Virus record (IMG/VR): IMGVR_UViG_3300045988_025530
Strand: one strand, 5' to 3'
Length of the DNA stretch: 18,722 nt
Origin: a virus
The position numbers and the translations under genes were made by a program. Shown piece by piece: positions 1-18,722 of the stretch. The notes beneath the pieces were generated by a model. The model saw nothing but the letters and a program-made list of their open reading frames with translations. It searched no databases and was not told the DNA's origin. The stretch's first letter is position 1, and the number at the start of each line of letters is the position of its first letter.

Positions 1-8
1 TCCGATCT
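1..8. other. Probable Illumina adapter remnant (TCCGATCT = 3' end of ...GCTCTTCCGATCT) fused to the genome terminus
   Basis: The first 8 nt are TCCGATCT and the last 8 nt are AGATCGGA, the start of the read-through adapter AGATCGGAAGAGC. The match is only 8 nt but exact at both ends. Confidence 0.65.
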
Positions 9-232
9 AAAAGGAGGGGTGGCCTCCTGGCAGCTGGCCTTTTTCCACAACTGTTCTGTTGTGTGTTTTTGTTCTTGTGTTTTGTTCTGTGTTTTTCATT
101 GCTGTTCTTGTCTTGTCATTTGTTATCACCTCTGTTGTATTCTCTTTCCTTGTTCTTTTTTCGTCGGGTTTTTTTGATGTTTCTGCGTGTCGTGTTTTGT
201 GGTGTTGTATTATATGAGTATCGGCCAAGGTA
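1..232. repeat. Left inverted terminal repeat (ITR); 224 bp if the 8-nt adapter is removed
   Basis: Nt 1-232 equal the reverse complement of 18491-18722 (compared by eye). ORF-track translations 7..228(-) and 18495..18716(+) are identical. Imperfect similarity continues to about 244/18479 (GGAAGGATGG). There is a GC-rich terminal block at 9-43, followed by an extremely T/G-rich tract. Confidence 0.95.
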
Positions 233-244
233 ATGGAAGGATGG
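192..244 (+). promoter_or_regulatory. Putative early promoter + RBS cassette, copy 1 (inner edge of left ITR)
   Basis: GTGTTTTGTGGTGTTGTATTAT (-10-like TATTAT at 208-213) ... TATCGGCCAAGG ... GGAAGGATGG. Near-identical blocks occur at 561-616 and, inverted, at 18479-18531, each directly upstream of an inward-reading ORF. The -35 is weak. Confidence 0.4.
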
Positions 245-254
245 AAAATAAAAA

Positions 255-510
255 ATGATTAATTTTAATGCTTATGTTATCGAGCTTGAAGCTGATAATA
301 GCTATAAGGTGTGCATTGAAATGTGTACAGGGTATTGTTACTAATGATGGCCTTATCGATGATAGTGTTACTACGTTTGAGTCGGCACTTTCAACGGTTA
401 TTGAGATTATGCTGAGTGATGATTATGACTATGTTGAAGTTAGTCGTGGTTTATCTCAAAAAGGCCGTTTGTGTCGTAAGTATGTTATCTCGGTTGATGA
501 CGGGGATTGA
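255..510 (+). pseudogene. Small left-arm ORF, paralog of 864..1109, interrupted by a +1 frameshift near nt 333
   Basis: ATG at 255 gives MINFNAYVIELEADNSYKVCIEMCTG.. and stops at 342-344. The +1 frame (ORF 268..510) continues GIVTNDGLIDDSVTTFESALSTVI...VISVDDGD. The two pieces align colinearly and gap-free with MFKVNAYVTEVEPGHVYSVDVDGFEKIVTACREIDNGEVTFKSALTRVL...VVTIDDFVW (864..1109) if one nt around 333 is skipped. Confidence 0.5.
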
Positions 511-520
511 TAACAATAAG

Positions 521-560
521 CCCGGTAGGTCAATGGCCTACCGGGTTCGTTGTTTGTGTT
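521..560 (+). terminator. Rho-independent terminator after the first left-arm ORF
   Basis: CCCGGTAGG (521-529) / CCTACCGGG (537-545) form a 9-bp stem with a 7-nt loop, followed by the T-rich TTCGTTGTTTGTGTT. Confidence 0.7.
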
Positions 561-616
561 GTGTTTTGTGGTGTGGTATTATGTTAATTATCAGCCAAAG
601 GATGAAGGAAGGATGG
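561..616 (+). promoter_or_regulatory. Putative promoter + RBS cassette, copy 2 (internal duplicate of the ITR inner edge)
   Basis: GTGTTTTGTGGTGTGGTATTAT, with TGgTATTAT (an extended -10-like box) at 574-582, then TATCAGCCAAAGG and AAGGAAGGATGGTGGTTGAGATG. The last part matches the right-end copy AAGGAAGGATGGCGGTTGATATG. Confidence 0.4.
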
Positions 617-858
617 TGGTTGAGATGTGGCATTATTTTACTGTTGTTGACACATATACGGGGTTGGACCGTGGTTTTCGGTGGCGTGAGGCGGTTTGCG
701 GTTACTGTGGGGTTGATTATCATTTTCAAATGTATGATGATATGTGTGGCCGCTGGATTCCGGTGAGGTCTTTTTTTGACGTGGGTGACGGTTTTGAGTA
801 TTGTCGTAATTTTGATTTTAAGGAATTTTATAGGACTTATGGTGAGAGGTTTGTTTGA
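613..858 (+). CDS. Hypothetical small protein (81 aa, MVVEMWHYF...)
   Basis: ATG at 613 sits directly after the GGAAGGA RBS of cassette copy 2. It lies in the frame of ORF 550..858 and has the T/G-rich coding strand typical of both arms. No recognisable family. Confidence 0.55.
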   Translation: MVVEMWHYFTVVDTYTGLDRGFRWREAVCGYCGVDYHFQMYDDMCGRWIPVRSFFDVGDGFEYCRNFDFKEFYRTYGERFV

Positions 859-863
859 GTAGA

Positions 864-1109
864 ATGTTTAAGGTTAATGCTTATGTGACTGAGGTTGAAC
901 CGGGTCATGTGTACTCGGTTGATGTTGACGGTTTTGAGAAAATTGTTACTGCTTGTAGGGAGATTGATAATGGTGAGGTCACGTTTAAGTCAGCTCTTAC
1001 TAGGGTTCTTGAACATGATTATGGTGATTGTGATTTTGATTTCATATGTCGTGGTGTTAAGGACGGTGTTGGTTGCTATGTTGTTACAATTGATGATTTT
1101 GTGTGGTGA
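864..1109 (+). CDS. Hypothetical small protein (81 aa; intact paralog of 255..510)
   Basis: ORF 855..1109. ATG at 864 gives MFKVNAYV, which aligns with MINFNAYV of the first copy. The same 3' context GATTGATAACAA(A)TAAGCCC plus hairpin follows both copies. Confidence 0.6.
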   Translation: MFKVNAYVTEVEPGHVYSVDVDGFEKIVTACREIDNGEVTFKSALTRVLEHDYGDCDFDFICRGVKDGVGCYVVTIDDFVW

Positions 1110-1118
1110 TTGATAACA

Positions 1119-1147
1119 AATAAGCCCCGCATTTTGCGGGGCTTATT
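1119..1147. terminator. Bidirectional rho-independent terminator between convergent left-arm genes and the lysis cassette
   Basis: AATAAGCCCCGCA (1119-1131) / TGCGGGGCTTATT (1135-1147) form a perfect 13-bp stem with loop TTT and A/T-rich flanks on both sides. It lies between the stop at 1109 (+) and the stop at 1161 (-). Confidence 0.8.
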
Positions 1148-1160
1148 CGTGCTGGGGAGG

Positions 1161-2228
1161 TTAGTAGTAGAGTACTTCTCCGGGGTAGATGAGGTTCATG
1201 TTACCCGAGCTGTACCCGGTGATGTTGTACATGCTGACCCCAAGATATGCGGCAATGCCTGATAGTGTGTCGCCTGACTGTACCACGTATGTGCGCGACA
1301 CTGTTGCAGTGTTGCCGCCGCCATTGTGACAGATTTTATCACCGGGGTATACGATGGACGGGTTGCCGCTTGGCACGGTGACGTTCCACCAATCAGACCA
1401 GAACATGGAAACGTACTGTCCAGACTGGATGATAACACAATCAGTGTTGCATGGGGTGTTCGGCGTGCTGGGTTGCGGTGCGGGTTGCGGTGTGGGTTGC
1501 GGTGTGGGATTGGGTGCAACCTGCCCGCTACCCGCGTATGCGTGCCACGTGTTGAGGTCGCCGTAGACTACGCTTAGGTCAACTCCTCCAGTCCAGCCAT
1601 TGACGTAGCCGTTGCCGGTGTACTGCCATGCGACAGCAAACGGCCAATTGCGTAGTGTGGGTTGAACCGCTGGAGGGTTGAAGCCGTAGATTGGTGTATA
1701 GCCTAGCGTATATGCGGCAATCCACAGCCCATAATCTCCGGCGACAACCGCCGACCAATCATAACTATTTTCCGCGTACTGGTTCGTGTAGATAATCGGT
1801 TTGGTGCCCCATACGGCTTCCACGGTTTGAAGCCATGTGAGCGCCCAACTGGTGTCCCATAGGGCGTTAGGCTCCCAGTCGAGGATTGGCACGATGCCTT
1901 TGCCAATGTATCCGCGTGTGTGGTCGATAAAGTAATTGGCCTCATCGACGGCGCTGTTTTCCGTGTGCGCGAAGTGGTAGACGCCGACACCCTGCCCTGC
2001 CGCCAAGGCGTCCTGTACCACGCGGTCACAATCGGGGTTGACGTATCCGATACCCTCGGTGGCTTTGGCGACTACGATTTGCGCGCCAGTGGTGGTGACG
2101 TTGATACCAGTTTGCCAACTGGATACGTCTATCATGTCCGCCGCGTTTGCGGTTGGCGCTAATGCCAACAGCAGTGCGGCGATTGCGGCAATCATACTAT
2201 AGGCGATTGCTTTAATCTTCTTTACCAC
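1161..2228 (-). CDS. Endolysin: N-terminal Sec-type signal peptide + GH25 muramidase + Pro-rich linker + C-terminal LysM domain(s)
   Basis: MVKKIKAIAYSMIAAIAALLLALAPTANA|AD is a signal-peptide-like N-terminus with an AxA site. GH25-like motifs are present: MIDVSSWQ, KATEGIGYVNP, GVYHFAH, ILDWE. The linker is PNPTPQPTPQPAPQPSTPNTP. The C-terminus YVVQSGDTLSGIAAYLGVSMYNITGYSSGNMNLIYPGEVL is LysM. The GTG start at 2228 is preceded by AGGAAGGA with a 5-nt spacer. Confidence 0.88.
   Translation of the reverse strand: MVKKIKAIAYSMIAAIAALLLALAPTANAADMIDVSSWQTGINVTTTGAQIVVAKATEGIGYVNPDCDRVVQDALAAGQGVGVYHFAHTENSAVDEANYFIDHTRGYIGKGIVPILDWEPNALWDTSWALTWLQTVEAVWGTKPIIYTNQYAENSYDWSAVVAGDYGLWIAAYTLGYTPIYGFNPPAVQPTLRNWPFAVAWQYTGNGYVNGWTGGVDLSVVYGDLNTWHAYAGSGQVAPNPTPQPTPQPAPQPSTPNTPCNTDCVIIQSGQYVSMFWSDWWNVTVPSGNPSIVYPGDKICHNGGGNTATVSRTYVVQSGDTLSGIAAYLGVSMYNITGYSSGNMNLIYPGEVLYY
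1470..1517. repeat. 12-nt tandem repeat (about 4 units GGGTTGCGGTGY) encoding the (T/A)PQP linker of the endolysin
   Basis: gggttgcggtgc gggttgcggtgt gggttgcggtgt gggattgggtgc, read directly from the sequence. Confidence 0.8.
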
Positions 2229-2577
2229 CGTTTTCCTTCCTGTCGATGTTGAAAATGTTGAGAATACTGGAGCCGCTTAACTCGGGGTTGATTTTTACGC
2301 AATTCTCCATGATTGAGGTAATCTCAATCAGGCAGATGCCTACGCAAACCGGGATGAACACCGGTAGTCCGATTCCGAGATTGATGTAGTCCGAACCGTA
2401 TTCTACAATCAGCGCGACACAGATTACGGCAAGGTAGGCGAATTTGTGTCCGAGCCCCCTCCGCATTCTCTCACTGGACAGCTTGCCGTGCATGATTGCG
2501 TTTACCACGCCGGTGATATAGTCAATCAGCACCAATAAAAATACAATGCCGATAACGATAAATTCATGGATTGGCAT
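2212..2577 (-). CDS. Holin (3 predicted TMDs; resembles the Phage_holin_4/TcdE-like family)
   Basis: 121 aa with three hydrophobic segments (FIVIGIVFLLVLIDYITGVVNAI, FAYLAVICVALIVEYG, LPVFIPVCVGICLIEITSIM) and a charged C-terminus (DRKENGGKED). RBS is GAGGAA. It lies immediately upstream of, and overlaps by 17 nt, the endolysin. Confidence 0.8.
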   Translation of the reverse strand: MPIHEFIVIGIVFLLVLIDYITGVVNAIMHGKLSSERMRRGLGHKFAYLAVICVALIVEYGSDYINLGIGLPVFIPVCVGICLIEITSIMENCVKINPELSGSSILNIFNIDRKENGGKED

Positions 2578-2586
2578 GAATATTCC

Positions 2587-3693
2587 TCACTTTCTTATAC
2601 CTGATTGCTGTAGTAAGCCGCCAAGTATCATACTGAATTCCGCCTTGATTTGTGGTGTTTCAAAACGCAATCGTCCGACGCGGTAGGCGTTTAGTATTTT
2701 CTGCGTCATATCATCTGAGCGTTTGAGCATCATGCAATCATTATCGACTAGTCGATAATCAAACGTAAAATCTCTAGTGATTTTAGGTTGCTTTTTGGTT
2801 ATGACATATAATACTTCGTCCGTGTCGCTTAATTGCTGGTATACGTTAAAAATACCGTATTCTGTGGTTCTCAGCGTGAACGCATAACCGGCGTTGTTGA
2901 AATCACTGATGAGGGTATTGGCGTTATCCCTAAAATCATTGTTGATTGCATAATTCGCATAATTTTCATCATATTTGCGTAGGAACGTGCCGAATTTGGA
3001 CGAGGCCACCTTTGCGCTGAACCCGCCATAATCGGCCAATTCCACCATGATAAACCCGTCGCAATAGCGTTGGTATTGCGTATGATTATCCAACTGTGGT
3101 TTTAGGTTGATATTGAATGCCGAAAAATACGGGTTGGCGAGGGTCACGGCGTTACTGCACATGATTACGCGAGTCCTATCATTCCACCGGTCAACCGTAT
3201 TGTAAAATTCCTCAAGCGAGGTCACTTCACCGCCCAAATACCGCATATTATCGGGGAAGATTTCATCGAAAACAATGGTGCGCACCTTGGGATACGCAAC
3301 CGATTTCACTTGTCCCGCCTGCGATAGGGCGATGAAGTACCCCATGATATGCCATGTGGGGCGTGTCTTGCCATGCTTGTCCGTGATGGCGTCCCTATCG
3401 TCCAGCCAATGACATTCCGCCTGATTGCCGGACACGCGAAACTCCAATCCCGGGTATTGCTCCGCGATATCCGCGAACCATGTGCCCTTGTTTTTCTGCT
3501 CCTCCGCCGTTCTGCGTAGATAGATGAACTGCCAGCGTTTTTTAATCCAGTCGCCTATGACCAGTTTTTTGGCACCGTAGGTTTTTCCGAGACCGCGCGC
3601 GCCAATGACGAACATCCAAGGCGCGTGGTAGGATAACACGCGCCCATAATCGTAATAATCGCCCTCGGCTAACAGTTTCTCCATATATATCAT
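2587..3693 (-). CDS. DNA encapsidation (packaging) ATPase, phi29 gp16-like
   Basis: Walker A GARGLGKT and Walker B TIVFDEIF. At 368 aa it is close to phi29 gp16 (332 aa), and it sits in the late operon. There is no obvious SD; the start could be the ATG at 3693 or at 3684. Confidence 0.8.
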   Translation of the reverse strand: MIYMEKLLAEGDYYDYGRVLSYHAPWMFVIGARGLGKTYGAKKLVIGDWIKKRWQFIYLRRTAEEQKNKGTWFADIAEQYPGLEFRVSGNQAECHWLDDRDAITDKHGKTRPTWHIMGYFIALSQAGQVKSVAYPKVRTIVFDEIFPDNMRYLGGEVTSLEEFYNTVDRWNDRTRVIMCSNAVTLANPYFSAFNINLKPQLDNHTQYQRYCDGFIMVELADYGGFSAKVASSKFGTFLRKYDENYANYAINNDFRDNANTLISDFNNAGYAFTLRTTEYGIFNVYQQLSDTDEVLYVITKKQPKITRDFTFDYRLVDNDCMMLKRSDDMTQKILNAYRVGRLRFETPQIKAEFSMILGGLLQQSGIRK

Positions 3694-3714
3694 TATGGCA
3701 CGACATACGGACTT

Positions 3715-4932
3715 TTAGAAGTTCGGTGGGGCACTAGCGCCGTCCCATACGACTAGCAGATTATACACGGTCCGATACCGGCTCGGGTATTGCCCGAAAA
3801 CACTGTCATTAAGCAGATTATCCAATAAACCGCCCAATGTGGTTGCTTTCGGTAGCGCCTCGGCGTATGCCGGGCCTTGATGATATGCAGACGCCCATAG
3901 TATCTGCATTTTCGCGTCCGAGTAGACTTGCGGATAATTGTTGTAATCCGTCTCGAACTGGTCACGTTGCCCCTGATGTGATTCGGCGCGTTGCGCCCAT
4001 GTTTTGAACGCCGCCGACTCCGTAGGGGTAAGAGGGCGTGTAAACGGCCCGCCATTGCCCATGAGTGCCGCTATCTCGGGGCATGTTTTGGCAAACGTCT
4101 CATAGCCTGTCGGGTCGGCGGTTTTCATCGCATTCAACACGTCCAACCGACGGTTAAACGACCATTGCGCAATCCCTATGCCCTGCCTGTTGGCTAATTC
4201 GACCGCGCCCCATTGCAATGAGCTTTCCACCGTGCCGATACAGTAGAGTGCGTAACTGCTTTTGCCGTTGCCTGTAGAGGGCGTGGCTTGGCCGCCCGAG
4301 TCACTGGGCGCTTTAACGCTACCCTTGGCCTTCCATGTTTGGGCCGTGGCTTTGTAGAAAATCATGGCACCCGCGCCACTGTCGTTGTCGCGGTAATGGT
4401 AGATAAGATTGTCGCCCTGTTGTTGTATCCACACGTCACTGCTGGATATGCTACCCGAGTTGTTCGAGCCGGTAGGGTTCGAGCCACTGTCATTGTCGCC
4501 GCCGTCCGGTTTTTTGCGCGGGTGCAAATATCCGATATACGCTTTTTGCAATGGGAGTAGTTTATGCACGCTTGGCTCGGGGTTTTGCGTAATCACGTCG
4601 ATGGAATCGCCCTGTATTCCATCAACGACAATGGCCACGTGCGTTGACGGATAATTGGGATAGCAGACCTGCCATATGGCTACGTCGCCGGGCATAGGGT
4701 TCCATGTGTTGTCTTTTTTCTCGAAAATCTCCCCGACTCTTGCGCTTACGGGATGATGTGTGTATAATCCCCCGGCCCAACCGGTAGGGGTGATACAATC
4801 CTGAACACTACACCCGTACTCATCCATGCAATATTTTGCCCACAAGTCCCAGCATTGCGGGCCCCAACTGCCGTCCATGTCCCAAAAGTGGTTTTCGGTC
4901 TGTTTCACCCATGTCCTGAAGTCAACTGCCAT
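3715..4932 (-). CDS. Tail-associated peptidoglycan hydrolase: N-terminal CHAP domain + C-terminal phi29 gp13-type lysozyme-like domain
   Basis: CHAP-like Cys/His signature (WGPQCWDLWAKYC ... PSTHVAIVV). Gly/Ser/Asn linker (GGDNDSGSNPTGSNNSGS). The C-terminal VESSLQWGAVELANRQGIGIAQWSFNRRL resembles phi29 gp13 SESTINPG...LGFGLVQWT. Its position in the tail module matches gp13. Confidence 0.7.
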   Translation of the reverse strand: MAVDFRTWVKQTENHFWDMDGSWGPQCWDLWAKYCMDEYGCSVQDCITPTGWAGGLYTHHPVSARVGEIFEKKDNTWNPMPGDVAIWQVCYPNYPSTHVAIVVDGIQGDSIDVITQNPEPSVHKLLPLQKAYIGYLHPRKKPDGGDNDSGSNPTGSNNSGSISSSDVWIQQQGDNLIYHYRDNDSGAGAMIFYKATAQTWKAKGSVKAPSDSGGQATPSTGNGKSSYALYCIGTVESSLQWGAVELANRQGIGIAQWSFNRRLDVLNAMKTADPTGYETFAKTCPEIAALMGNGGPFTRPLTPTESAAFKTWAQRAESHQGQRDQFETDYNNYPQVYSDAKMQILWASAYHQGPAYAEALPKATTLGGLLDNLLNDSVFGQYPSRYRTVYNLLVVWDGASAPPNF

Positions 4933-4942
4933 ACATAACAGT

Positions 4943-4972
4943 ATACCCCGCCCGGACTACCGGACGGGGTAT
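4943..4972 (-). other. Intergenic stem-loop (possible attenuator/terminator or 5' structure)
   Basis: ATACCCCG-c-CCGG acta CCGG-a-CGGGGTAT (12 bp with one mismatch). There is no clear U-tract on the minus strand. Confidence 0.4.
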
Positions 4973-4988
4973 GTTTCACGTGAAACAT
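4971..4988. promoter_or_regulatory. 18-bp perfect palindrome ATGTTTCACGTGAAACAT (candidate operator / RNA hairpin), site 1
   Basis: Perfect dyad read directly, in the 73-nt gap between the fibre gene stop (5006) and the tail-lysin start (4932). The same core recurs at 10961, 14009 and 14617. Confidence 0.5.
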
Positions 4989-5005
4989 GGGGCGTTACGC
5001 TGGTA

Positions 5006-5938
5006 TCAGATTACAAAATAAGAGAGTTGCAGTGTCTGTTTCAGCTGAGTGTTTGTCTTGATTGTTCCCTGACAATAGAAAGATACTACCCCATCTCCGG
5101 TGATACTAATGTTGCATGGCCCGGAGTCATTACCATACGTGAACGGATAGGAATTCATAAAGCCGTTCGGTCGATATCCTTCCGGCATTGTCCCGATAAT
5201 GAGTGAACCGGGGTTCACGTTCGACGTGCAGTTAGCGTTGGAGTGCCCATCTGGCGAACCGAAACGCACCATGATGTTGACGAATTTTGACAGCGGTGAG
5301 TAATATGCCGTCCATGATACGTTGGAAAAATGATTAGTCAGCACGTTAATTCGCTGAACCAATGCCGTCGCTGATTGTCCCAAGGTTTTCAGGTTGGTTA
5401 ATTCTTCCTGTACGTTCGTCGCCGCCGCCGTCGCGTTTGTCGCTTCAGTGTGGATTTGCTGTGCGGTGCCTGAGTATCCGCCCTGCTTGGTGAACGTCGT
5501 GTCCACCTGATTTCTGGTGTACACACTGCTGGCGTCCGCCTTACCTTCAACCCTATTGGTCAAGCCCGACACGGTGCCCCGTAGTGAGGAAAGTTCGGCG
5601 TCCTCCGCCTTGCCGTTGATAGTGTTCATAAGGTTCTGCGCGGTCGTAGGAGACGTGACGCCGAGCTTGCTGAAATAGTCATCCAATTCGGCAATATCGT
5701 TCTTGTTGGTCTGCGCAAGCGCCGCCGCGTCATCCGCCGCCTGCTTCGCCTCGCCTGCCGCTGTGTTCGCGTTGTTCGCCGCCGCCGTCGCCGTGGTGAT
5801 GTTGGTCGCGTTAGCGTACATCTGATTATCGATTGTCGTCATTGCATCAGTGAAGTCACCGCGCCATGACGGCCGGTCGTTCGGATTGTCGCCAAACGCC
5901 GGCAGATTATAGTGTCCGGTATGCTGTGTAGTTGACAT
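5006..5938 (-). CDS. Tail fibre / receptor-binding appendage protein (long form)
   Basis: 310 aa. The N-terminal about 45 aa are shared with the next ORF (HYNLPAFG..DRPSWRGDFTDAMTTIDNQ). The centre is Ala/Thr/Asn-rich and coiled-coil-like; the C-terminal half looks like a beta-rich globular domain. RBS is GAAGGAG. It lies in the tail module. Confidence 0.6.
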   Translation of the reverse strand: MSTTQHTGHYNLPAFGDNPNDRPSWRGDFTDAMTTIDNQMYANATNITTATAAANNANTAAGEAKQAADDAAALAQTNKNDIAELDDYFSKLGVTSPTTAQNLMNTINGKAEDAELSSLRGTVSGLTNRVEGKADASSVYTRNQVDTTFTKQGGYSGTAQQIHTEATNATAAATNVQEELTNLKTLGQSATALVQRINVLTNHFSNVSWTAYYSPLSKFVNIMVRFGSPDGHSNANCTSNVNPGSLIIGTMPEGYRPNGFMNSYPFTYGNDSGPCNISITGDGVVSFYCQGTIKTNTQLKQTLQLSYFVI

Positions 5939-5956
5939 TATGCTACTCCTTCACTG

Positions 5957-6373
5957 TTACTTGGCGGAACCGATACGGACGATGCCGTTCGCGTCCTTAT
6001 ACATCGAATCAAGCTCGGTCGCCGTCAATCCGAGCGTACTGGGCTGAGCGGCGGTTTTATCGACCTTGCCCGCCAGCCCCGAGGTGAGCGCGTTGGTGGT
6101 GGCGAACCCGCTTGTATCCGGGATGTCGGTTTTGCGTGCGATAGTGTCCGCCACGCCCAGCGGAGAACCGGATGTACCGTTACCGGTGAGGTCGGCGGTG
6201 TGCTCCACCGTCGTAAGCCCGCCCTCAGTAGCCGACGCGATATCATCGGCGTTCCGTTTGAGCTGTGCGTCGATTTTCGCCATGTCGCCGTTATAGTCGC
6301 CGAGCCACGTGGGGCGGTCGGAGCCGGCGAACTGTGAGAGATTATAGTTTCTGGTATGGTTGGTTGCGGTCAT
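5957..6373 (-). CDS. Short tail fibre/appendage protein sharing the N-terminal anchor with 5006..5938
   Basis: 138 aa. NYNLSQFAGSDRPTWLGDYNGDMAKIDAQ aligns with the N-terminus of the 310-aa ORF. It also has a fibre-like repeat VEHTADLTGNGTSGSPLGV. Confidence 0.5.
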   Translation of the reverse strand: MTATNHTRNYNLSQFAGSDRPTWLGDYNGDMAKIDAQLKRNADDIASATEGGLTTVEHTADLTGNGTSGSPLGVADTIARKTDIPDTSGFATTNALTSGLAGKVDKTAAQPSTLGLTATELDSMYKDANGIVRIGSAK

Positions 6374-6378
6374 GATGG

Positions 6379-7014: not shown

Positions 7015-7016
7015 GA

Positions 7017-8758: not shown

Positions 8759-8770
8759 ACTACCATCATA

Positions 8771-11104: not shown

Positions 11105-11120
11105 GCCTCCGGTATGACAA

Positions 11121-11155
11121 GGCCCGGAGCGCTCACGTGGATTACGCTCCGGGCC
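11121..11155 (-). terminator. Stem-loop 2 downstream of the major capsid gene (attenuating terminator candidate)
   Basis: GGCCCGGAGCG (11121-11131) / CGCTCCGGGCC (11145-11155) form a perfect 11-bp stem with a 13-nt loop containing CACGTG. On the minus strand it is followed by TTGTCAT, a weak U-tract. Confidence 0.5.
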
Positions 11156-11176
11156 TTGTATTGCATCTCGCCGTGA

Positions 11177-11204
11177 GGGAGGGTAGCCAACCGGCTACCC
11201 TCTC
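11177..11204 (-). terminator. Stem-loop 1 immediately after the major capsid gene stop
   Basis: GAGGGTAGCC (11179-11188) / GGCTACCCTC (11193-11202) form a 10-bp stem with a 4-nt loop, extendable by 2 bp. Confidence 0.5.
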
Positions 11205-11213
11205 ATTATATCA
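11205..11213 (-). promoter_or_regulatory. Extended -10 box TGATATAAT overlapping the capsid gene stop codon
   Basis: The minus strand reads GCA TGA TATAAT GAGAGG, a perfect TGnTATAAT. No good -35 was seen. Confidence 0.35.
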
Positions 11214-12950: not shown

Positions 12951-12964
12951 TTCCTTCCTGACTG

Positions 12965-13306
12965 TTAGTCTTCAAACAGGTCATCGAATGTACTGTAGAT
13001 GCCGTTGTAGTCATCGTCGGTCATTTCAGCCGATTCCGGCGTCGCATTATCGTCCGGGCCGTCGTTGAACACGTGGTCTGCGGCGGCGTCGCGCATAGCC
13101 TCAATGGTTTTGGAGAGTTCCGCCACGGTCGCTTCCAAGGCGCTCAACCGGTTGGCCATGTCGGCGTCCTTATCGTCGCCCGCGTCCTCGGGTTCGCCAT
13201 TGTCCTGCGTTTCAGGCTCCGGGTTTGGCGTATTATCGTCGGTCGGCCCGGCGTCCGGTTCGGTGTCGGGCGTGGTGTCCGGTTCGGTGTTTTCGGTATC
13301 GTCCAT
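12965..13306 (-). CDS. Scaffolding protein (phi29 gp7 position), highly acidic
   Basis: 113 aa from the ATG at 13306 (RBS AAGGGG, 7-nt spacer; the track ORF starts at GTG 13312). Termini are very D/E-rich and there is a central helix, ANRLSALEATVAELSKTIEAMRDAAA. It lies immediately upstream of the capsid gene. Confidence 0.7.
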   Translation of the reverse strand: MDDTENTEPDTTPDTEPDAGPTDDNTPNPEPETQDNGEPEDAGDDKDADMANRLSALEATVAELSKTIEAMRDAAADHVFNDGPDDNATPESAEMTDDDYNGIYSTFDDLFED

Positions 13307-13315
13307 AATCACCCC

Positions 13316-13486
13316 TTAAAGTAAGTGGCATGACGGCAATCACGCCGTCATGCCGGTTTGCTAGGCTGTGCGGGTTCCCTCGCCGTCGCTGGGCGTTGGC
13401 TACGCACGTCTACATCCGACCGAATCGCCTTACCGATTTGCCTGCCGGTCGGGCCATCGAATCGACTTGGGACGCACACCCCGCTA
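13316..13486 (-). ncRNA. Candidate about 160-170 nt structured RNA or regulatory 5' leader of the late operon (hypothetical)
   Basis: The 181-nt gap between pol and scaffold is GC-rich, has no plausible ORF, and has an extended -10 box at its upstream edge. Visible pairings (minus-strand RNA): 13490-13473 with 13372-13353 (about 16 bp, interrupted); CCGACCG 13452-13446 with CGGUCGG 13422-13416, enclosing AAUCG/CGAUU (13438-13434 / 13427-13423); and a perfect 11-bp terminal hairpin at 13354-13327. Confidence 0.3.
13327..13354 (-). terminator. Perfect 11-bp stem-loop just upstream of the scaffold RBS (terminator/attenuator candidate)
   Basis: GGCATGACGGC aatcac GCCGTCATGCC. On the minus strand it is followed by ACUUACUUUAAGGGG, which is moderately U-rich. 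Confidence 0.5.
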
Positions 13487-13492
13487 CCGGAT

Positions 13493-13501
13493 ATTATAGC
13501 A
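13493..13501 (-). promoter_or_regulatory. Extended -10 box TGCTATAAT overlapping the DNA polymerase stop codon (candidate middle/late promoter)
   Basis: The minus strand reads CTTTTA TGC TAT AAT ATCCGG, a perfect TGnTATAAT. The -35 region (TGATGA at 17-nt spacing) is poor, which extended -10 promoters tolerate. Confidence 0.45.
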
Positions 13502-14954
13502 TAAAAGTATGGCCGTCATCATTGATATGGCGTGAACCGGGTATAAACTCATCATAGGGGATGGGGGCGGCTCGATGTACGCCGCTCAAACGCATTACCG
13601 TATCGCCGCCCGTTTCCACGCCGCAATATTTGCGATTGCCGAGGATACGGAGCCTGTCATAGGTGTGGTCGTTTTTCCACGCGCCTAGTTTTCGGTCATC
13701 CGTTTCTATACCTGCGGGCGCGTCCAGCCCTTCCAGTATCATGCCGTCGGTATCGGCGTAGAGTACGCGCTCGGCGTTATCGTTCATGGCGCGGGATAGT
13801 ATTCGCCTCCCGTAGGCGTTGACATATGCGGCGGTTGGCAACCATGCCAGACTGTTGGCCGACTCGGGTTTATCCACGGTAAAATCCACGCCACCGTCCA
13901 CGGACGGTTTCGGGTGTAACATGGGCCGGTAGAGGGAGGCCCCGAATTTTCCCACCAGTGAATTCAGCAACAGTTTCGCCATCTGCCTGCGCTCCCCGGT
14001 TTCTGTTTGTTTCACGTGGAACCATTTGTCCACGTATGTGTAGTAGAGTCCGTGTGATTTGCGGAATTTCCAGCCGCCGATATGCTCCCACACATGGATG
14101 TCATAGTTTTCGGCCAGCGTTTCCCAATCCACATCCGTGACCGGCATAGTTACGACGCCGAGCGTACTATCCAGACGTTCACCCTCATACCCCCATACGG
14201 GTAGGATATTGGTGAGTGTCGCCGTTTTTCCCGGTTTCAACCTTGCATCAAACGCAATGACATCGATATGGAGCGGATAGTCATTGTCATGTTGATACTT
14301 CCCGTCGTACCATATGGGTGAGCCTACCGGCATGGGCGCATCGCGCATGATACTCGGGTAGAGGCTGTTCACGTCCCAGCTTCGGCAATCCCGGTATTCG
14401 CCCGGCTTGCTGTATACTATCGCCCCATAGTAGGCGGGGCGCATACGGTGATAAACATCTTTGTCCAATGACGGAAAATGACGTTTGAATCCGGCGTAAT
14501 CCCCGTCGATATAGTCGGTCATTGCCATTGACGCTATCGTAGTGCCCCTGAGATTCAGGGAAGCGCATTCCTGCGCGATATTCCACGTGGTTTCCAAGTC
14601 ATCCGCGCCGCCGAATGTTTCACGTAAAACATTCAAGCCATCGTCGCGCGTAATATTGCGCACGTCCACAAAATCCACGGTGATACCGCCCATGCGCACG
14701 CGGAAACTGTAGAAATGTCCACGGATGTTAAACGTGCCCCACACACCGTCCTTGGCTGGGTTCGACTGCGAGGGGAGTCGTTTCAACAGTTCGGCGGCTA
14801 TGGGCTTGATGTCCTGCCATCCGTGGGCACACCATACGCGCGTATGATAATTGAGCATGGTGAGACGGATGACGGTGTTCACCGTCAATGGTTCCATGCC
14901 GTCATCCGTCAATAGTGTTGCGCCGTCTGTTGCCGCCGTTCGACGCTCTTTCAT
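13494..14954 (-). CDS. Family-B protein-primed DNA polymerase (phi29 gp2-like), short N-terminal domain
   Basis: Motif A is DVNSLYPSIM (phi29 DVNSLYPAQM). DGKYQHDNDYPLHIDVIAFDARLKPG compares with EGKYVWDEDYPLHIQHIRCEFELKEG. YxGA is PAYYGA. Motif B is KLLLNSLVGKF (phi29 KLMLNSLYGKF). Motif C is LYADTDGM (phi29 IYCDTDSI). KxY is NRKY. RBS is AAAGGA. Confidence 0.95.
   Translation of the reverse strand: MKERRTAATDGATLLTDDGMEPLTVNTVIRLTMLNYHTRVWCAHGWQDIKPIAAELLKRLPSQSNPAKDGVWGTFNIRGHFYSFRVRMGGITVDFVDVRNITRDDGLNVLRETFGGADDLETTWNIAQECASLNLRGTTIASMAMTDYIDGDYAGFKRHFPSLDKDVYHRMRPAYYGAIVYSKPGEYRDCRSWDVNSLYPSIMRDAPMPVGSPIWYDGKYQHDNDYPLHIDVIAFDARLKPGKTATLTNILPVWGYEGERLDSTLGVVTMPVTDVDWETLAENYDIHVWEHIGGWKFRKSHGLYYTYVDKWFHVKQTETGERRQMAKLLLNSLVGKFGASLYRPMLHPKPSVDGGVDFTVDKPESANSLAWLPTAAYVNAYGRRILSRAMNDNAERVLYADTDGMILEGLDAPAGIETDDRKLGAWKNDHTYDRLRILGNRKYCGVETGGDTVMRLSGVHRAAPIPYDEFIPGSRHINDDGHTFML
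14009..14022. repeat. Palindrome GTTTCACGTGGAAC (one mismatched pair), site 3 (inside pol)
   Basis: Read directly. The minus strand encodes F-H-V-K-Q (TTC CAC GTG AAA CAA), a different codon register from sites 2 and 4. Confidence 0.45.
14613..14634. repeat. 22-bp palindrome GAATGTTTCACGTAAAACATTC (one mismatched pair), site 4 (inside pol)
   Basis: Read directly. The minus strand encodes N-V-L-R-E-T-F. Confidence 0.45.
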
Positions 14955-14966
14955 GATTCCATCCTT

Positions 14967-15911
14967 TTAGTGTCGTGCCGCGCTGGTCATCCATTCATCG
15001 AGTCGCGTCTCTACATCACCCGCGTCCGCCTTCGTCTCCCATTTATGTGTCTTATCATTATACCATGTAGCTTCCCGTACCACGGTGCCAAAATTCGTGT
15101 TGTTTATCAACCATCGTTTTTGACGGTTCGATAAAGACGCGAATTTTCGGGCGACATTGGCGTCGAATGCTTCGAGTTGCTGTTCGACCCTATCAAAATC
15201 CGCAACCCCCTCGTTCTCGGGAATCTTTCCAGTACCTGCATGTAATGGCGCGCGTCCTACAAGCCCGGCGTATTCGAGTATCTCCCTTTCAAGCCTACTC
15301 CTGCCCCCCTCTCGTATCATCATACGCGCGTGGCTCATGCCACGCTCCGAACCGAACACGTTCTCCCGGTTGCGCGTGAGTTCGTCACGCGCCGAACCGC
15401 CGACCGTATGAGTGCCTAACACATCAAACGGGGATTCTCCAGCGCGTTCCATCTCACGCATTTCGCCCACGGTGTAGTTGGCCATGCTCAATGCGTCGAA
15501 TTGTTGGGCGCGTTTGATTTTCCGCCGTGCCTCGATACGGCGGCGCTGTTGCTGTCGTAATGTTTTCCGACGTTTCGTCGGGGCGGCGGCGATTTCCGCG
15601 TCGGTAATCAACGGACGCGCCGCCAGTTCCCTATCGAGTTTCGTAATATGCACATCCGGGACAACCTGATACGGCTCGTTGTCCCGGGCCCTTAGGGCTT
15701 GCTGTTGTTCCCCGAACTCCTGCCCGATACGGCGTGCAACCTGTTCGAGTTGTTGGGCGCTGAGTTTTCCCAGAAACGTTTCGGTGATTTGCTTGGGGAG
15801 GTGTCCGGTACTGTAATCCCTGACTGCTTGCTCTCGGCGTACCTGTGCCGACCTGATAGCGGCGTTGCGTTTCAGATTGTTGGCGCGTCGGTTGTTTTTA
15901 CGTTTTGCCAC
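14967..15911 (-). CDS. Putative terminal protein (replication primer), basic
   Basis: It lies immediately upstream of the polymerase, as phi29 gene 3 does. The N-terminus is Arg/Lys-rich (AKRKNNRRANNLKRNAAIRSAQVRRE, compared with phi29 TP ARSPRIRIKDNDKAEYARLVKNTKAKIARTKKK), with a second basic patch PTKRRKTLRQQQRRRIEARRKIKRAQ. The GTG at 15911 is preferred (RBS AAGGGGGAG), because the track start TTG 15986 would put a strong hairpin inside the CDS. No sequence-level homology could be verified. Confidence 0.5.
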   Translation of the reverse strand: MAKRKNNRRANNLKRNAAIRSAQVRREQAVRDYSTGHLPKQITETFLGKLSAQQLEQVARRIGQEFGEQQQALRARDNEPYQVVPDVHITKLDRELAARPLITDAEIAAAPTKRRKTLRQQQRRRIEARRKIKRAQQFDALSMANYTVGEMREMERAGESPFDVLGTHTVGGSARDELTRNRENVFGSERGMSHARMMIREGGRSRLEREILEYAGLVGRAPLHAGTGKIPENEGVADFDRVEQQLEAFDANVARKFASLSNRQKRWLINNTNFGTVVREATWYNDKTHKWETKADAGDVETRLDEWMTSAARH

Positions 15912-15937
15912 AGTCTCCCCCTTGCGAGTATGAAACA

Positions 15938-15971
15938 CCCCTCGCCGCAAGGATGGAAAAACGACGAGGGG
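15938..15971 (-). other. Stem-loop in the SSB-TP intergenic region (attenuator/terminator candidate)
   Basis: CCCCTCGCCG (15938-15947) / CGACGAGGGG (15962-15971) form a 10-bp stem with one G-U in the RNA and a 14-nt loop. On the minus strand it is followed by UGUUUCAUACU. Confidence 0.4.
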
Positions 15972-16035
15972 TGAGTTTGGCGGCAACGTCCCTATAGAGA
16001 CATTGCCATGTTATCATATGATGTGGACAATTAGT

Positions 16036-16473
16036 TTACTTGCGGCCCTTTTCCGACACAAGTTCGAGGTCGAAGAATTTATAGCCACGGCGGCTTTTCT
16101 TTTCCACCACCTTGAGAACAAGCGGATGGTCCCACGTGTCCGGCGTGCCGAAGATGGCGAACAGATTGCCGAAAGCGTGTGCCAGCGTAGGGGACGCGGC
16201 GGCGAAGTCGCCTTCCTCCGCGTGGATTACAACGCGGGTGGAAGAGTTGATTTCGCCCGTTTCCTGATTGGCTACCTCGATGGCCTGAGCAAGCACGTTG
16301 GTCACATGCAGTGGCTCATTGAGATGTTCGTCAACCTTGTCGGCGGTCTGCATGGCGTTATACAACGCCATTTTACCATCCATAGTGTCAGTGTTGAAGA
16401 AATGGGATACGGCGTTGGCACCGTTCGCCGCAAAATTATTGCCGTTCGTTACGGTCAGTTCGTTGTCAGCCAT
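16036..16473 (-). CDS. ssDNA-binding protein, phi29 p5-like
   Basis: VVIHAEEGDFAAASPTLAHAFGNLFAIF...LVLKVVEKKSRRGYKFFDLELVS compares with phi29 p5 TIFAADGSLYSAISKTVAEAASDLIDLV...FKVKVVQGTSSKGNVFFSLQLS. It sits between the p6-like ORF and the TP, as in phi29. RBS is AAGGAAAGG. Confidence 0.6.
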   Translation of the reverse strand: MADNELTVTNGNNFAANGANAVSHFFNTDTMDGKMALYNAMQTADKVDEHLNEPLHVTNVLAQAIEVANQETGEINSSTRVVIHAEEGDFAAASPTLAHAFGNLFAIFGTPDTWDHPLVLKVVEKKSRRGYKFFDLELVSEKGRK

Positions 16474-16502
16474 TGTGTTGCCTTTCCTTACAGGGTTAGT
16501 GA

Positions 16503-16814
16503 TTATTCTTCCTCGGAGATGATATCATCTTCAACCACGTTGCCGTTCATCGACCCCGGATAGTCGATAATGGTATCATCCCCAAACTCACAATTAGCCC
16601 AATAGATTGCCTCATCCATGCGCGTCGCCTGAGCATGATATTCGGCAGACACGGGGAGCATGTCCTTGTTAATCTTACGGGCTTTCTTCATTGCCATGTC
16701 AGGCGTGCGGCACGCGCCATCCACGACTACCTCGGCGTCAACAAGTTCCCCGTTTTCGCCGCGCGTAACACCGCGCACAATACTATAGTGCTTGGCTCGC
16801 TTAATATATGCCAT
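16503..16814 (-). CDS. Putative dsDNA-binding (histone-like) protein, phi29 p6-like
   Basis: 103 aa (phi29 p6 is 104 aa) with an acidic C-terminal tail (VVEDDIISEEE). There is weak colinear similarity: GACRTPDMAMKKARKINKDMLPVSAEYHAQATRMDEAIYWA compared with GNLTMEQAQWRMKRKYKGEPVQVVSVEPNTEVYELPVEKFLEVA. It has the same position relative to SSB/TP/pol. RBS is AAGGTGG. Confidence 0.4.
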   Translation of the reverse strand: MAYIKRAKHYSIVRGVTRGENGELVDAEVVVDGACRTPDMAMKKARKINKDMLPVSAEYHAQATRMDEAIYWANCEFGDDTIIDYPGSMNGNVVEDDIISEEE

Positions 16815-16831
16815 AATCGTGCCACCTTTTC

Positions 16832-17341
16832 TTAATGTTGCTGTTGTCGCGACATTCTTGCAATGTCTTCATCAGTATACCGTGCGTCGGTCAGATTGTC
16901 AAAACGGAGGCACGCAATTTTGATGATAGTCTGAGCGAACCCATCAACCTCCCAAGTCTTGCACATCTCATAGCAGGTTGCGCCCTTGACATGGCAGACA
17001 GCGCACCACGCCACCATTGCCGGACAGTAAATAAGCCCGGACAACATTTCAATGCCCTGCGTTCGTGATAATGCGGCGTACATTGACGAATGAGGCGAGA
17101 TGCTTAGACAAATGTTCGCCGCATGTTCGATACTGTCGGCAAACGCCACCTGACCTCCCTGAGGCTTATAGAAATCCTTAAGCAGTGCCACAGTGCGGCA
17201 AAACGTTTCCCAATCGCCCTCACCACGGTTGTATTCCCGCAAGTGCAGATTACGCCGACGGCCACGAATGACACGGCGCACACGGTCATCGTCCAGCACG
17301 CCATCGTCAAACCAATTCGTACGGTCATCATTGCTCTTCAT
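16832..17341 (-). CDS. Hypothetical early protein (169 aa)
   Basis: ORF 16832..17350. The ATG at 17341 is preferred (GAGAGG RBS, 9-nt spacer). No recognisable motif. Confidence 0.55.
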   Translation of the reverse strand: MKSNDDRTNWFDDGVLDDDRVRRVIRGRRRNLHLREYNRGEGDWETFCRTVALLKDFYKPQGGQVAFADSIEHAANICLSISPHSSMYAALSRTQGIEMLSGLIYCPAMVAWCAVCHVKGATCYEMCKTWEVDGFAQTIIKIACLRFDNLTDARYTDEDIARMSRQQQH

Positions 17342-17343
17342 AA

Positions 17344-17589
17344 TCAACACCTCTCTACCAACGACGTATCAGCCAGCGCCCTCGCATCAACCAGCATATG
17401 AGCCACCTGAGCGTAATCACACGCATCAAACGCCACAGCCGACCAAACCAAACGACGCCCGCCGCCGTCCTGAGGCCGCACCCCATACCGCAGTTCATAC
17501 GTCCGATTATGAGGACAATACACCAGCCGCACATCACCAGACTTAAGCTTGGATGGAATCACGGCCACGACTTCATCATTCGCCATCAT
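17344..17589 (-). CDS. Hypothetical early protein (about 81 aa)
   Basis: ORF 17344..17592 with tandem ATGs after GAAGAAGGTG. It is tightly packed against the downstream ORF. Confidence 0.5.
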   Translation of the reverse strand: MMANDEVVAVIPSKLKSGDVRLVYCPHNRTYELRYGVRPQDGGGRRLVWSAVAFDACDYAQVAHMLVDARALADTSLVERC

Positions 17590-17625
17590 CAAACACCTTC
17601 TTCTTCCTCGAACGGTAAACGCACT

Positions 17626-18054
17626 TCAACATCTTTCTATATCCTTCGCTTCCATAATCACAGTAGAACAACCCTTTGCCAAACACTTTGCATCATACGA
17701 CACAGTACGTTTGAGCTCATCAAAACCACGGAATTCGGCAAATTTCACGTCAAGATGCAAGGGGTCGGATTCGCCTTTCCATTGCAATACATCTATATTC
17801 AGTCTCATCCATTGGAGTTCAATGAACTTATTATAGAGGCACACCGAAGCATGAACATCGCCATCAATGCACTTCATAACACCCTTATGCTTCCTGCAAA
17901 ATCTGACAGGAATGAAATACTCCAGCTCATTTGAAAACGAATTACATCCTACACCAGCGCAGGCCGTTATATAAATAAAATAATTGTCAGGCAATAGACT
18001 ATTAAACAGGTTCACAATAATGTTATCATTAAAATAATTCATCTTTATTCTCAT
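17626..18054 (-). CDS. Hypothetical early protein (142 aa), Cys-rich, encoded in a low-GC island
   Basis: The ORF has an ATGA overlap with the upstream ORF. It contains 9 Cys, including CAGVGC, CRKHKGVMKC and CLAKGC. Local GC looks about 30-40% against more than 50% elsewhere (by-eye counts). Confidence 0.5.
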   Translation of the reverse strand: MRIKMNYFNDNIIVNLFNSLLPDNYFIYITACAGVGCNSFSNELEYFIPVRFCRKHKGVMKCIDGDVHASVCLYNKFIELQWMRLNIDVLQWKGESDPLHLDVKFAEFRGFDELKRTVSYDAKCLAKGCSTVIMEAKDIERC

Positions 18055-18233
18055 AATTCCACAACCTTATAACGCAATTCGATACAATAATACACGCCCG
18101 CCAAATCAACACCGCCATAATACTCGACGGCCTTGATTGCACAGGCATGACTATTACATTCAGCTACGCACTCACATTTGCCATCACTATAATGACGTAG
18201 CACAGCGAATACTTGAACAAGTTTCACGCCCAT
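18051..18233 (-). CDS. Hypothetical early protein (60 aa), Cys-rich
   Basis: The ORF overlaps both neighbours (10 nt and 4 nt), consistent with translational coupling. It contains CECVAECNSHAC. Confidence 0.4.
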   Translation of the reverse strand: MGVKLVQVFAVLRHYSDGKCECVAECNSHACAIKAVEYYGGVDLAGVYYCIELRYKVVEL

Positions 18234-18481
18234 CTCATCACCACCATTTCCTTACCATAAAAACGCTCAGGATGCTCAGAAACAAACCTCATCAAGCGAT
18301 AAACAAAACCCACCATATTATCCATAGCCGAACAAACCTCACCAGTACAAGGGTCATACGTTTCAGTAAAAAACCTTACAACCACGAACCTCTTTAAGCG
18401 ATAACGCAAGACAAGAACCTCCCTCCCATCCAGCTCACGAGCCTCAAAACGAACAGAAACACCAGTCATATCAACCGCCAT
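18224..18481 (-). CDS. Hypothetical first early protein (85 aa, MAVDM...)
   Basis: ATG at 18481 follows AAGGAAGGA of the right-end promoter/RBS cassette. Its N-terminus MAVDM mirrors MVVEM of the ORF at 613. Confidence 0.55.
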   Translation of the reverse strand: MAVDMTGVSVRFEARELDGREVLVLRYRLKRFVVVRFFTETYDPCTGEVCSAMDNMVGFVYRLMRFVSEHPERFYGKEMVVMRWA

Positions 18482-18531
18482 CCTTCCTTATACCTTGGCC
18501 GATACTCATATAATACAACACCACAAAACAC
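18479..18531 (-). promoter_or_regulatory. Putative early promoter + RBS cassette, copy 3 (inner edge of right ITR)
   Basis: This is the reverse complement of copy 1 through GGCCAAGGTA, followed by TAAGGAAGGATGGCGGTTGATATG. The TATTAT -10-like box lies at 18510-18515 (minus strand). Confidence 0.4.
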
Positions 18532-18722
18532 GACACGCAGAAACATCAAAAAAACCCGACGAAAAAAGAACAAGGAAAGAGAATACAACAGAGGTGATAA
18601 CAAATGACAAGACAAGAACAGCAATGAAAAACACAGAACAAAACACAAGAACAAAAACACACAACAGAACAGTTGTGGAAAAAGGCCAGCTGCCAGGAGG
18701 CCACCCCTCCTTTTAGATCGGA
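18491..18722. repeat. Right inverted terminal repeat
   Basis: Exact reverse complement of 1-232. Confidence 0.95.
18715..18722. other. Probable Illumina adapter remnant (AGATCGGA)
   Basis: It matches the first 8 nt of the AGATCGGAAGAGC read-through adapter. Confidence 0.65.

Follow-up and report, generated by a model that had tools for sequence, protein, structure and literature searches.

Gene Content and Layout

The window analyzed here, the whole 18,722-nucleotide stretch of the IMG/VR virus record IMGVR_UViG_3300045988_025530, is very probably a complete linear double-stranded DNA genome, that of a phi29-like podophage of Bifidobacterium that is uncultured and apparently virulent. Three of its elements are the main subject of this work: the gene for a short DNA polymerase, a small RNA gene that follows it, and four copies of a palindrome that matches the parS sites of the host chromosome. 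All named phi29-type genes lie on the minus strand, and only three small open reading frames (ORFs, 268-1109) run in the opposite direction (Table 1). A sequence-only reading of this stretch had listed a polymerase, a single-stranded DNA-binding protein (SSB), a capsid, a tail knob, a portal, and an ATPase of the phi29 type, and all of these scored above the curated Pfam thresholds at which matches were counted. Its description of the layout, one long leftward unit met by a short converging arm as in Cp-1, agrees with the order annotated in both Cp-1 and Av-1. The GC content is 52.9% overall, falls to 0.40 at the ends, and reaches 0.61 in the structural region, which bears out the earlier remark that this region lies well above 50%; the proline- and glutamine-rich linker noticed in the endolysin was also found. 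The early genes would be transcribed leftward from the right end, and the genome would be packaged into proheads by the portal and the gp16-type ATPase. An integrated prophage or a plasmid was considered and rejected, with no integrase or partition protein found and a full lysis and virion set present. An alternative genetic code was rejected as well, since every gene is open in table 11.

Table 1. Features of the Window (Positions 1-18722)
Feature	Position	Strand	Basis
TruSeq adapter remnant TCCGATCT, non-phage	1-8		adapter identity; relative L020 with longer TTCCCTACACGACGCTCTTCCGATCT there
Left inverted terminal repeat, 224 bp, 5'-AAAAGGAGGGG	9-232	+	perfect repeat; contigs L012, L015, and L026 begin here
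Short rightward arm, three small ORFs (268-510, 550-858, 855-1109)	268-1109	+	no family match
Endolysin: GH25 muramidase, Pro/Gln/Thr linker PNPTPQPTPQPAPQP, LysM	1161-2228	-	Pfam
Holin (Phage_holin_4_1)	2212-2577	-	Pfam
gp16-type DNA packaging ATPase (Podovirus_Gp16, PF05894)	2587-3693	-	Pfam, E 5e-42
Tail-associated cell-wall hydrolase: CHAP and tail lysozyme domain	3715-4932	-	Pfam, PHROGs
parS site 1, perfect TGTTTCACGTGAAACA	4972-4987		intergenic
Three tail fibre/appendage-region proteins (5006-5938, 5957-6373, 6379-7026)	5006-7026	-	position; weak PHROG matches
Lower collar (gp11/adaptor Ad4)	7017-7811	-	PHROGs only, phrog_3225, E 8e-29
Portal/upper collar gp10 (Phage_connector, PF05352)	7808-8758	-	Pfam, E 5e-43; basic N-terminus MSRSKRNR
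Tail knob, gp9-like (phi29_gp9_C and Caud_tail_N)	8771-11104	-	Pfam, PHROGs
parS site 2, 0 mismatches	10961-10976		in tail knob gene
Major capsid protein, Phi29_MCP with C-terminal Big_2	11211-12950	-	Pfam, E 5e-87
Acidic scaffold-like protein	12965-13312	-	position and composition; no family match
Small RNA gene	13320-13501	-	promoter, conserved structured core, hairpin
DNA polymerase DNA_pol_B_2 (PF03175), 486 aa	13494-14954	-	Pfam, E 2e-35
parS-like site, 2 mismatches	14008-14023		in polymerase gene
parS-like site, 1 mismatch	14616-14631		in polymerase gene
Candidate terminal protein, 314 aa	14967-15911	-	synteny (between SSB and polymerase)
p5-type SSB, Phi29_Phage_SSB	16036-16473	-	Pfam, E 4e-14
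Early ORFs, 103, 172, 82, 142, 60, and 85 aa	16503-18481	-	no family match
Right inverted terminal repeat, 224 bp	18491-18714	-	perfect repeat
Adapter remnant AGATCGGA	18715-18722		reverse complement of 1-8, from perfect repeat

Genome Ends

Positions 1-232 and 18491-18722 form an inverted repeat that is 100% complementary. The window starts with TCCGATCT, which is the final 8 nt of the Illumina TruSeq adapter, followed directly by AAAAGGAGGGGTGGCC, and it closes with AGATCGGA, the reverse complement of TCCGATCT. Ten contigs of relatives were anchored to the genome end for comparison. The first genome base, that of AAAAGGAGGGG, is the exact start of three independent public contigs from other samples (L012, L015, and L026). 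At the same place, the contig of another relative (L020) carries a longer stretch of adapter (...CCCTACACGACGCTCTTCCGATCT / TTCCCTACACGACGCTCTTCCGATCT), and L022 carries Nextera sequence. The first bases of the closest genome, IMGVR_UViG_3300045988_014762 (G001), are Nextera sequence (GTCTCGTGGGCTCGGAGATGTGTATAAGAGACAG), and its match to the window sets in about 10 nt inward of the true end. Ligation attaches adapters to the ends of real fragments. Because the adapter bases abut the very base at which three contigs start, the genome proper spans window positions 9-18714, or 18,706 bp, with inverted terminal repeats (ITRs) of 224 bp; this size falls in the range of phi29-like protein-primed podophages (about 12-27 kb). 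An adapter butted on a base shared by independent assemblies is good evidence that these are the physical ends of the molecule. Thus, of the perfect 232-bp ITR described earlier, the perfect repeat stands, and its length shrinks to 224 bp once the 8-nt adapter is removed. The claim of an end-to-end linear genome of the phi29/Cp-1 type is upheld by the adapter junctions, the shared contig starts, and the gene set and order.

Adapter-derived ends recur in the public IMG/VR records of this clade: Nextera or TruSeq sequence occupies positions 1-45 of L002 and the first 20-26 bases of L020 and L022. G001 is classed as ITR-ended by IMG/VR, and its apparent ITR of 273 nt includes about 45 adapter-derived nucleotides. 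Adapter sequence therefore inflates the ITR lengths reported for public virus records of the clade.

Both 5' ends of the trimmed genome begin with AAAA. Just inside this terminus, positions 9-40 hold an inverted repeat, AGGAGG...CCTCCT, where relatives have GGGGCCCC; it may be an origin or an element recognized by the terminal protein and polymerase. A 27-nt block at the inner edges of the ITRs (187-213 and 18510-18536) is repeated with 93% identity at 556-582, before the second left-arm ORF, and looks like a repeated promoter cassette.

Relatives and Host

Whole-window megablast against 50,697 phage records returned a single match, 245 nt at 80% identity, to an unverified faecal contig. Among isolates, the Bifidobacterium podophages BadAztec1/2, BadAargau2, BD811P1-3, and BP1 come nearest, with 14 of 24 proteins in common at 29-57% amino acid identity; the major capsid protein is 37-42% and the polymerase 34-36% identical to those of the isolates. 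Fewer proteins are in common with phages of this type from outside Bifidobacterium: seven of 24 with Av-1, five of 24 with Cp-1, and 5-6 of 24 with Cp-1 and phi29. By the convention of the International Committee on Taxonomy of Viruses, a genus corresponds to about 70% nucleotide identity over the genome. When membership in Badaztecvirus was tested, no genus-level nucleotide identity was found, and the proteins were 31-47% identical over full-length matches. Because no named phage matches at the DNA level, the phage is classified, by sequence comparison, as a new genus-level lineage within the already known Bifidobacterium group of phi29-like phages.

Uncultured relatives are public and numerous. 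G001 is 96% identical in nucleotides over nearly the whole genome and carries 23 of the 24 genes. A polymerase relative is encoded by 110 IMG/VR contigs, 80 of which were kept at an identity of at least 87%, and a search with the clade profile confirmed 212 IMG/VR contigs. Some protein clusters of the short polymerase hold from about 900 up to 2,144 members. A protein from a metagenome-assembled genome (MAG) in NCBI that is labelled Bifidobacterium breve (P0012) is a polymerase with 91% identity, and is probably encoded on a phage contig binned with the bacterial MAG. With regard to near-identity to a described phage, then, none was found among named phages, and near-identical uncultured genomes exist in public data (96% in IMG/VR; 91% for the polymerase in the NCBI MAG). 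The suggestion that phages of this type are rarely described in actinobacteria does not hold, as phi29-like phages have been published for Actinomyces, Bifidobacterium, Arthrobacter, Curtobacterium, Microbacterium, and Eggerthella.

The comparison with individual relatives places the window more closely. G001 resembles it in gene content and ITR ends and differs in missing 17630-18107, in its 45 nt of Nextera-derived ends, and in the absence of the first ~10 true bases. The isolates BadAztec1/BadAargau2, BD811P1-3, and BP1 have the same gene order, a short polymerase lacking exonuclease motifs, the protein family found at the terminal-protein position, and the RNA unit after the polymerase gene, and BadAztec1 has a long ITR of 259 bp; parS is missing from these isolates, and their endolysin and fibre genes are different. 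Av-1 (Dybvigvirus) infects an actinobacterium and has the module order of the window: SSB, terminal protein, polymerase, ..., major capsid protein, tail, portal, collar, ..., ATPase, holin, lysin, with opposed small ORFs at the far end. It differs from the window in that the common proteins are 29-38% identical, its 566-aa polymerase has the exonuclease motifs, it has no parS, and the packaging RNA predicted in its record is annotated at the right end instead of after the polymerase gene. Cp-1 is similar in its 236-bp ITR and in having one long transcription direction with a short converging arm, whereas its identity is 24-31%, its host is a low-GC Firmicute, its exonuclease domain is intact, and it lacks parS. 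The window has in common with phi29 the folds or families of capsid, portal, tail knob, lower collar, gp16 ATPase, and polymerase as well as the A-run at the 5' ends; phi29 differs in its 6-bp ITR, divergent early and late operons, packaging RNA at the left end, and proofreading polymerase.

To identify the host, the genome was compared by BLAST with one genome per species for 151 Bifidobacterium species. Clustered matches of 28-37 nt with 86-96% identity, ten or so in total, fell inside the CRISPR arrays of three genomes, whose species were named by exact GroEL look-up. Bifidobacterium adolescentis (G003) had five spacer matches with a 33-nt CRISPR repeat, B. ruminantium (G078) had three with a 29-nt repeat, and B. 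pseudocatenulatum (G069) had two with a 33-nt repeat. From the look of the repeats, we take the arrays of G003 and G069 to be I-C-like and that of G078 to be I-E-like. In addition, the endolysin is 65% identical to a gene in a B. phasiani genome. The high-GC Gram-positive, possibly actinobacterial host proposed earlier can now be named: the three CRISPR arrays and the endolysin homologue settle the predicted host genus as Bifidobacterium, and the host species probably lies within the B. adolescentis group.

Some observations weigh against these assignments. No spacer match reaches 100%, one genome per species was searched, and the MAG with the 91%-identical polymerase is labelled B. breve. The GC content of the phage also lies under that of B. 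adolescentis, which is roughly 59%. A host among other actinobacteria or gut Gram-positives, to which the imperfect spacers and the lower GC content could point, is nevertheless very improbable: the spacer matches lie in bona fide arrays of three Bifidobacterium species, the closest isolated phages all grow on Bifidobacterium, the endolysin has its homologue in a Bifidobacterium genome, and the phage parS equals that of Bifidobacterium, though parS is widely conserved. Even less probable is that the ITRs are an assembly artefact and that the real molecule is circular, concatemeric, or terminally redundant and was linearised arbitrarily. Assemblers can indeed make inverted ends, and adapter at a contig end is a sign of imperfect read trimming. 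Such an artefact would have to account for a terminal base shared by three independent contigs, for tagmentation libraries that fall short of that base by a few nucleotides, as they should at a physical end, and for the isolated relative BadAztec1, which is a linear record with ITRs of its own; the genome moreover codes for a polymerase of the protein-primed type. We therefore retain the reading of a complete linear genome from Bifidobacterium.

DNA Polymerase and Candidate Terminal Protein

By its sequence, the polymerase is a family B enzyme of the protein-primed type. Its 486 aa leave it some 90 residues short of phi29 polymerase, and sequence search aligns the polymerisation part only (residues 155-443 to phi29 206-500; PHROG 1907 from residue 134). 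The exonuclease motifs were examined in alignments of a clade of 475-490-aa polymerases, comprising the window, relatives at 34-94% identity, and all Bifidobacterium phage isolates, against Av-1, Cp-1, phi29, and 18 canonical relatives of 548-600 aa. ExoI (DFET), ExoII (HNLxFD), and ExoIII (YxxxD) are kept in every canonical polymerase aligned. The patterns DxE, Nx2-3(F/Y)D, and Yx3D are missing in every member of the 475-490-aa clade, whereas all 550-600-aa relatives have them. In the short clade, ExoI has become DGAT or similar, with loss of the glutamate, ExoII is unconserved, and the ExoIII region is deleted. The ExoI aspartate and the aspartate of FVDVRN in the window are nearly invariant acidic residues of the N-terminal part within the clade.

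An AlphaFold model of the enzyme (pLDDT 90.3) superposes on phi29 polymerase over the full length (TM 0.85, E 6e-40). Because the fold is kept over this full length while the Exo motifs are lost, the exonuclease domain appears from the model to survive as a scaffold without an active site. We infer from the motif losses that the 486-aa enzyme does not proofread, and the genome would then be copied by a phi29-type polymerase whose proofreading active site is lost.

Protein priming is likewise inferred, and the 314-aa protein encoded between the SSB and polymerase genes was assigned as the candidate terminal protein by its position (synteny only). Its most plausible start is the GTG at 15911, behind AAGGGGGAG. 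It is 31% identical to the BadAztec1 counterpart in the same position, and the family at this position has a basic N-terminus across all lineages, with T272 and Y284 invariant; these two are candidate priming residues. Weighing against the assignment, no similarity to known terminal proteins was detected by BLASTP (Av-1 terminal protein), by a 12-homologue profile against PDB sequences, or by fold: Foldseek with the AlphaFold model (pLDDT 80, pTM 0.50) gave no match to the phi29 terminal protein. The protein has no match in Pfam, PHROGs, or NCBIfam either. In the proposed mechanism, the 314-aa terminal protein would prime replication at the 3'-TTTT ends, with sliding-back.

Small RNA after the Polymerase Gene

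The largest non-coding gap of the genome (13313-13493) follows the polymerase gene, and an extended -10 box, TGCTATAAT (13501-13493), holds the polymerase stop codon. The predicted RNA starts near 13485-13488, has a structured core at 13484-13360, and ends with a hairpin at 13354-13327, for a length of about 165 nt, which lies within the span of about 120-174 nt for packaging RNAs. About 125 nt after TGCTATAAT are conserved above the flanking genes, and they are followed by a 12-bp hairpin with many compensatory changes. The unit of promoter, RNA, and hairpin stands after the polymerase gene in 14 of 14 sampled lineages, down to 35% polymerase identity and including BadAztec1/2, BP1, and BD811P1; one lineage has a variant -10 box, TGCTACACT. 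The hairpins of BP1 and BD811P1 carry a full U-tract, and between hairpin and scaffold gene these phages have another extended -10 promoter. With a U-tract terminator and a separate scaffold promoter, the RNA is a stand-alone gene in these two phages.

Folding of 15 lineage representatives closed a 5'/3' helix around a multi-branch core in 13; L099 did not form it, and L101 folded in part. When 27 sequences from two lineages were aligned, pairing held in 98.7% of cells, compared with 84% after shuffling and 30-44% after sliding, and 19 of 39 pairs change on both sides. The MAFFT alignment misplaces P2b, P4, and the bulge and loop columns between lineages, and these were excluded from the column-based pair count. 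A covariance model built from the 27 sequences detected the RNA in its expected position in four lineages on which it had not been trained (E 5e-9 to 1e-3), and in the model-fitted alignment that includes untrained lineages, 43 of 51 pairs are compensatory. The same model found nothing in Av-1, Cp-1, and phi29. On this evidence, we are highly confident that the RNA is a real structured RNA.

A long closing helix leads into a junction that carries an arm, with a 5' bulge and an inner hairpin, as well as a second hairpin. This layout is comparable to that of the packaging RNA (pRNA) of phi29, with its A helix, CE loop, E hairpin, and D loop. The bulge and the loop of the second hairpin are complementary in different sequences by lineage: GGC/GCC, UGGCA/UGCCA, GACUA/UAGUC, GUCG/UGAC, UUGC/GCAA, AACC/GGUU, and AUCAG/CUGAU. 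Tested by script, the summed bulge-loop complementarity beats permuted pairings with p ~3e-4 for curated, partly hand-defined loops and ~0.006 for objective regions. The RKR at the N-terminus of the phi29 portal is the pRNA-binding site, and the portals of the clade also have basic N-termini. Known pRNAs have only about 12% sequence similarity among themselves (PMC5066667), and a 2024 review describes pRNA as unique to phi29 and related Bacillus phages (PMC11476376). We consider that the small RNA has a slightly better than even chance of being the counterpart of phi29 pRNA; as such, it would bridge the portal and the ATPase in packaging.

The hairpin loop GUGAUUG is kept even between lineages that have diverged widely, a constancy for which a plain terminator gives no reason. 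Cp-1 has two late start sites ahead of its scaffold gene, mapped at 136 and 41 nt from the gene, an arrangement resembling that of RNA, second promoter, and scaffold gene in BP1; the stretch (L092 4735-4880) folds only modestly better than shuffles (z -2.5). A second extended -10 box of the window, TGATATAAT (11213-11205, minus strand), is located where the capsid gene ends, with strong hairpins after it (11105-11213), the same design as on the polymerase stop codon; it may drive another short transcript or belong to an attenuator. The sole Rfam match, Atu_C10 on these hairpins, was rejected as unrelated and at chance level.

parS Sites

The palindrome TGTTTCACGTGAAACA occurs at four sites in the window, two perfect and two with one or two mismatches (Table 1), where 0.1 would be expected; a count of four did not arise in any of 200 shuffles. 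The B. adolescentis genome has six occurrences of the 16-mer (at most one mismatch), and every one of them lies within 5 kb around parB. The pattern is similar in B. pseudocatenulatum and B. ruminantium, with 5-6 sites per host genome, nearly all around parB, and a control with the reversed pattern gave zero in the host genomes. Because the 16-mer is rare in the hosts and clustered around parB, the phage motif is, as judged by its sequence, the chromosomal parS of the host.

Two to four sites are present in 74 of 80 close loci, and the two sites in the polymerase gene keep their codon positions in lineages whose polymerase is 54-75% identical. The sites are absent from the 44% lineage and from BadAztec, BP1, BD811P1, Av-1, and Cp-1. 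No phage ParB was found among the window ORFs with Pfam, PHROGs, and NCBIfam. phi29 itself carries five host-type parS sites that are near-identical in sequence to the four of the window, and these have been published as Spo0J-binding parS used for spore entrapment (PMC2731898). By analogy with Spo0J on phi29, host ParB would load on the phage DNA via the four sites. We see an even balance for and against the proposal that ParB is loaded through host parS and that genomes are thereby probably carried into both daughter cells in a delayed or carrier-state infection.

For the RNA as for the parS sites, a regulatory role is the chief alternative. The RNA might serve the late operon as its structured 5' leader or as an attenuator, or it might be a small RNA with another role such as regulation or counter-defence. 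In the window lineage, the hairpin has a poor U-tract, and the Shine-Dalgarno sequence and ATG of the scaffold gene follow it within 12-20 nt with no second promoter between, so that the RNA could be a leader; the conserved hairpin loop suggests a protein-binding or regulatory site. Also unfavorable to a pRNA are the lack of a match to the Rfam pRNA model (all families searched at E <= 1), a loop-loop pairing of just 3 bp (GGC at 13442-13440 with GCC at 13400-13398) in the window's own lineage, and the failure of our covariance model to find BadAztec1/2, BP1, BD811P1, L099, and L101, where the unit is visible by eye. Set against a leader are the stand-alone gene in BP1 and BD811P1, the pRNA layout with a bulge-to-loop complementarity that seems to covary between lineages, and the presence of a gp16-type ATPase and a basic portal N-terminus, both of which work with pRNA in phi29; the Rfam scan of the window gave no other candidate RNA. 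We assign the leader or regulatory role a substantial chance, short of even, and keep the pRNA counterpart as the preferred reading of the RNA. The palindromes, in turn, could be operators of a phage or host regulator or passengers of coding constraint. Three of the four are intragenic, one neighbours a hairpin immediately ahead of the tail-lysin gene, a possible place for an operator, and Bifidobacterium is non-sporulating, so the known benefit to phi29 is missing and its rationale does not transfer. The parS function, moreover, is read from sequence identity alone. Operators or passengers are nonetheless unlikely: the 16-mer is identical to host sites clustered at parB with the reversed control at zero, positions are kept across lineages of considerable polymerase divergence, no phage ParB or other DNA-binding family was found, and phi29 provides a precedent. 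Host parS sites thus remain our preferred reading of the palindromes.

Other Genes

The small early and left-arm ORFs have no family in Pfam, PHROGs, or NCBIfam, and no separate exonuclease, ParB, or regulator was identified among them. A 480-bp segment, 17630-18107, which includes most of a 142-aa Cys-rich ORF (17626-18054), is missing in the 96%-identical G001, and this ORF has no homologue in any compared phage. On both grounds, it is predicted to be an accessory early gene. The proteins of the tail fibre/appendage region are partly common to BadAztec1. A bidirectional terminator-like hairpin lies at 519-547 in the left arm.

Biological Significance

Herein, our analysis describes an apparently common human gut lineage that, in a tentative combined reading we hold as possible rather than likely, joins a proofreading-dead polymerase, a pRNA unrelated in sequence to the Bacillus-phage pRNAs, and use of the host ParABS system, ridden via four parS sites, to persist in dividing non-sporulating cells. 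The value of the genome is that it makes polymerase fidelity, the packaging RNA, and persistence testable by direct experiment. The polymerase offers a test of whether a protein-primed phage can do without proofreading and whether that drives the dense microdiversity of the clade. The candidate RNA comes with a covariance model and defined compensatory mutations, and its packaging role is testable; if it is a pRNA, then pRNA-dependent packaging extends beyond Bacillus phages. The parS sites allow a test of whether hijacking of host ParB/parS, known only for spore entrapment by phi29, serves a lytic phage in a non-sporulating gut bacterium. More than 200 IMG/VR contigs encode a polymerase of the short clade and some of its protein clusters are large, so that the lineage appears common and is probably of ecological importance for the B. 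adolescentis group.

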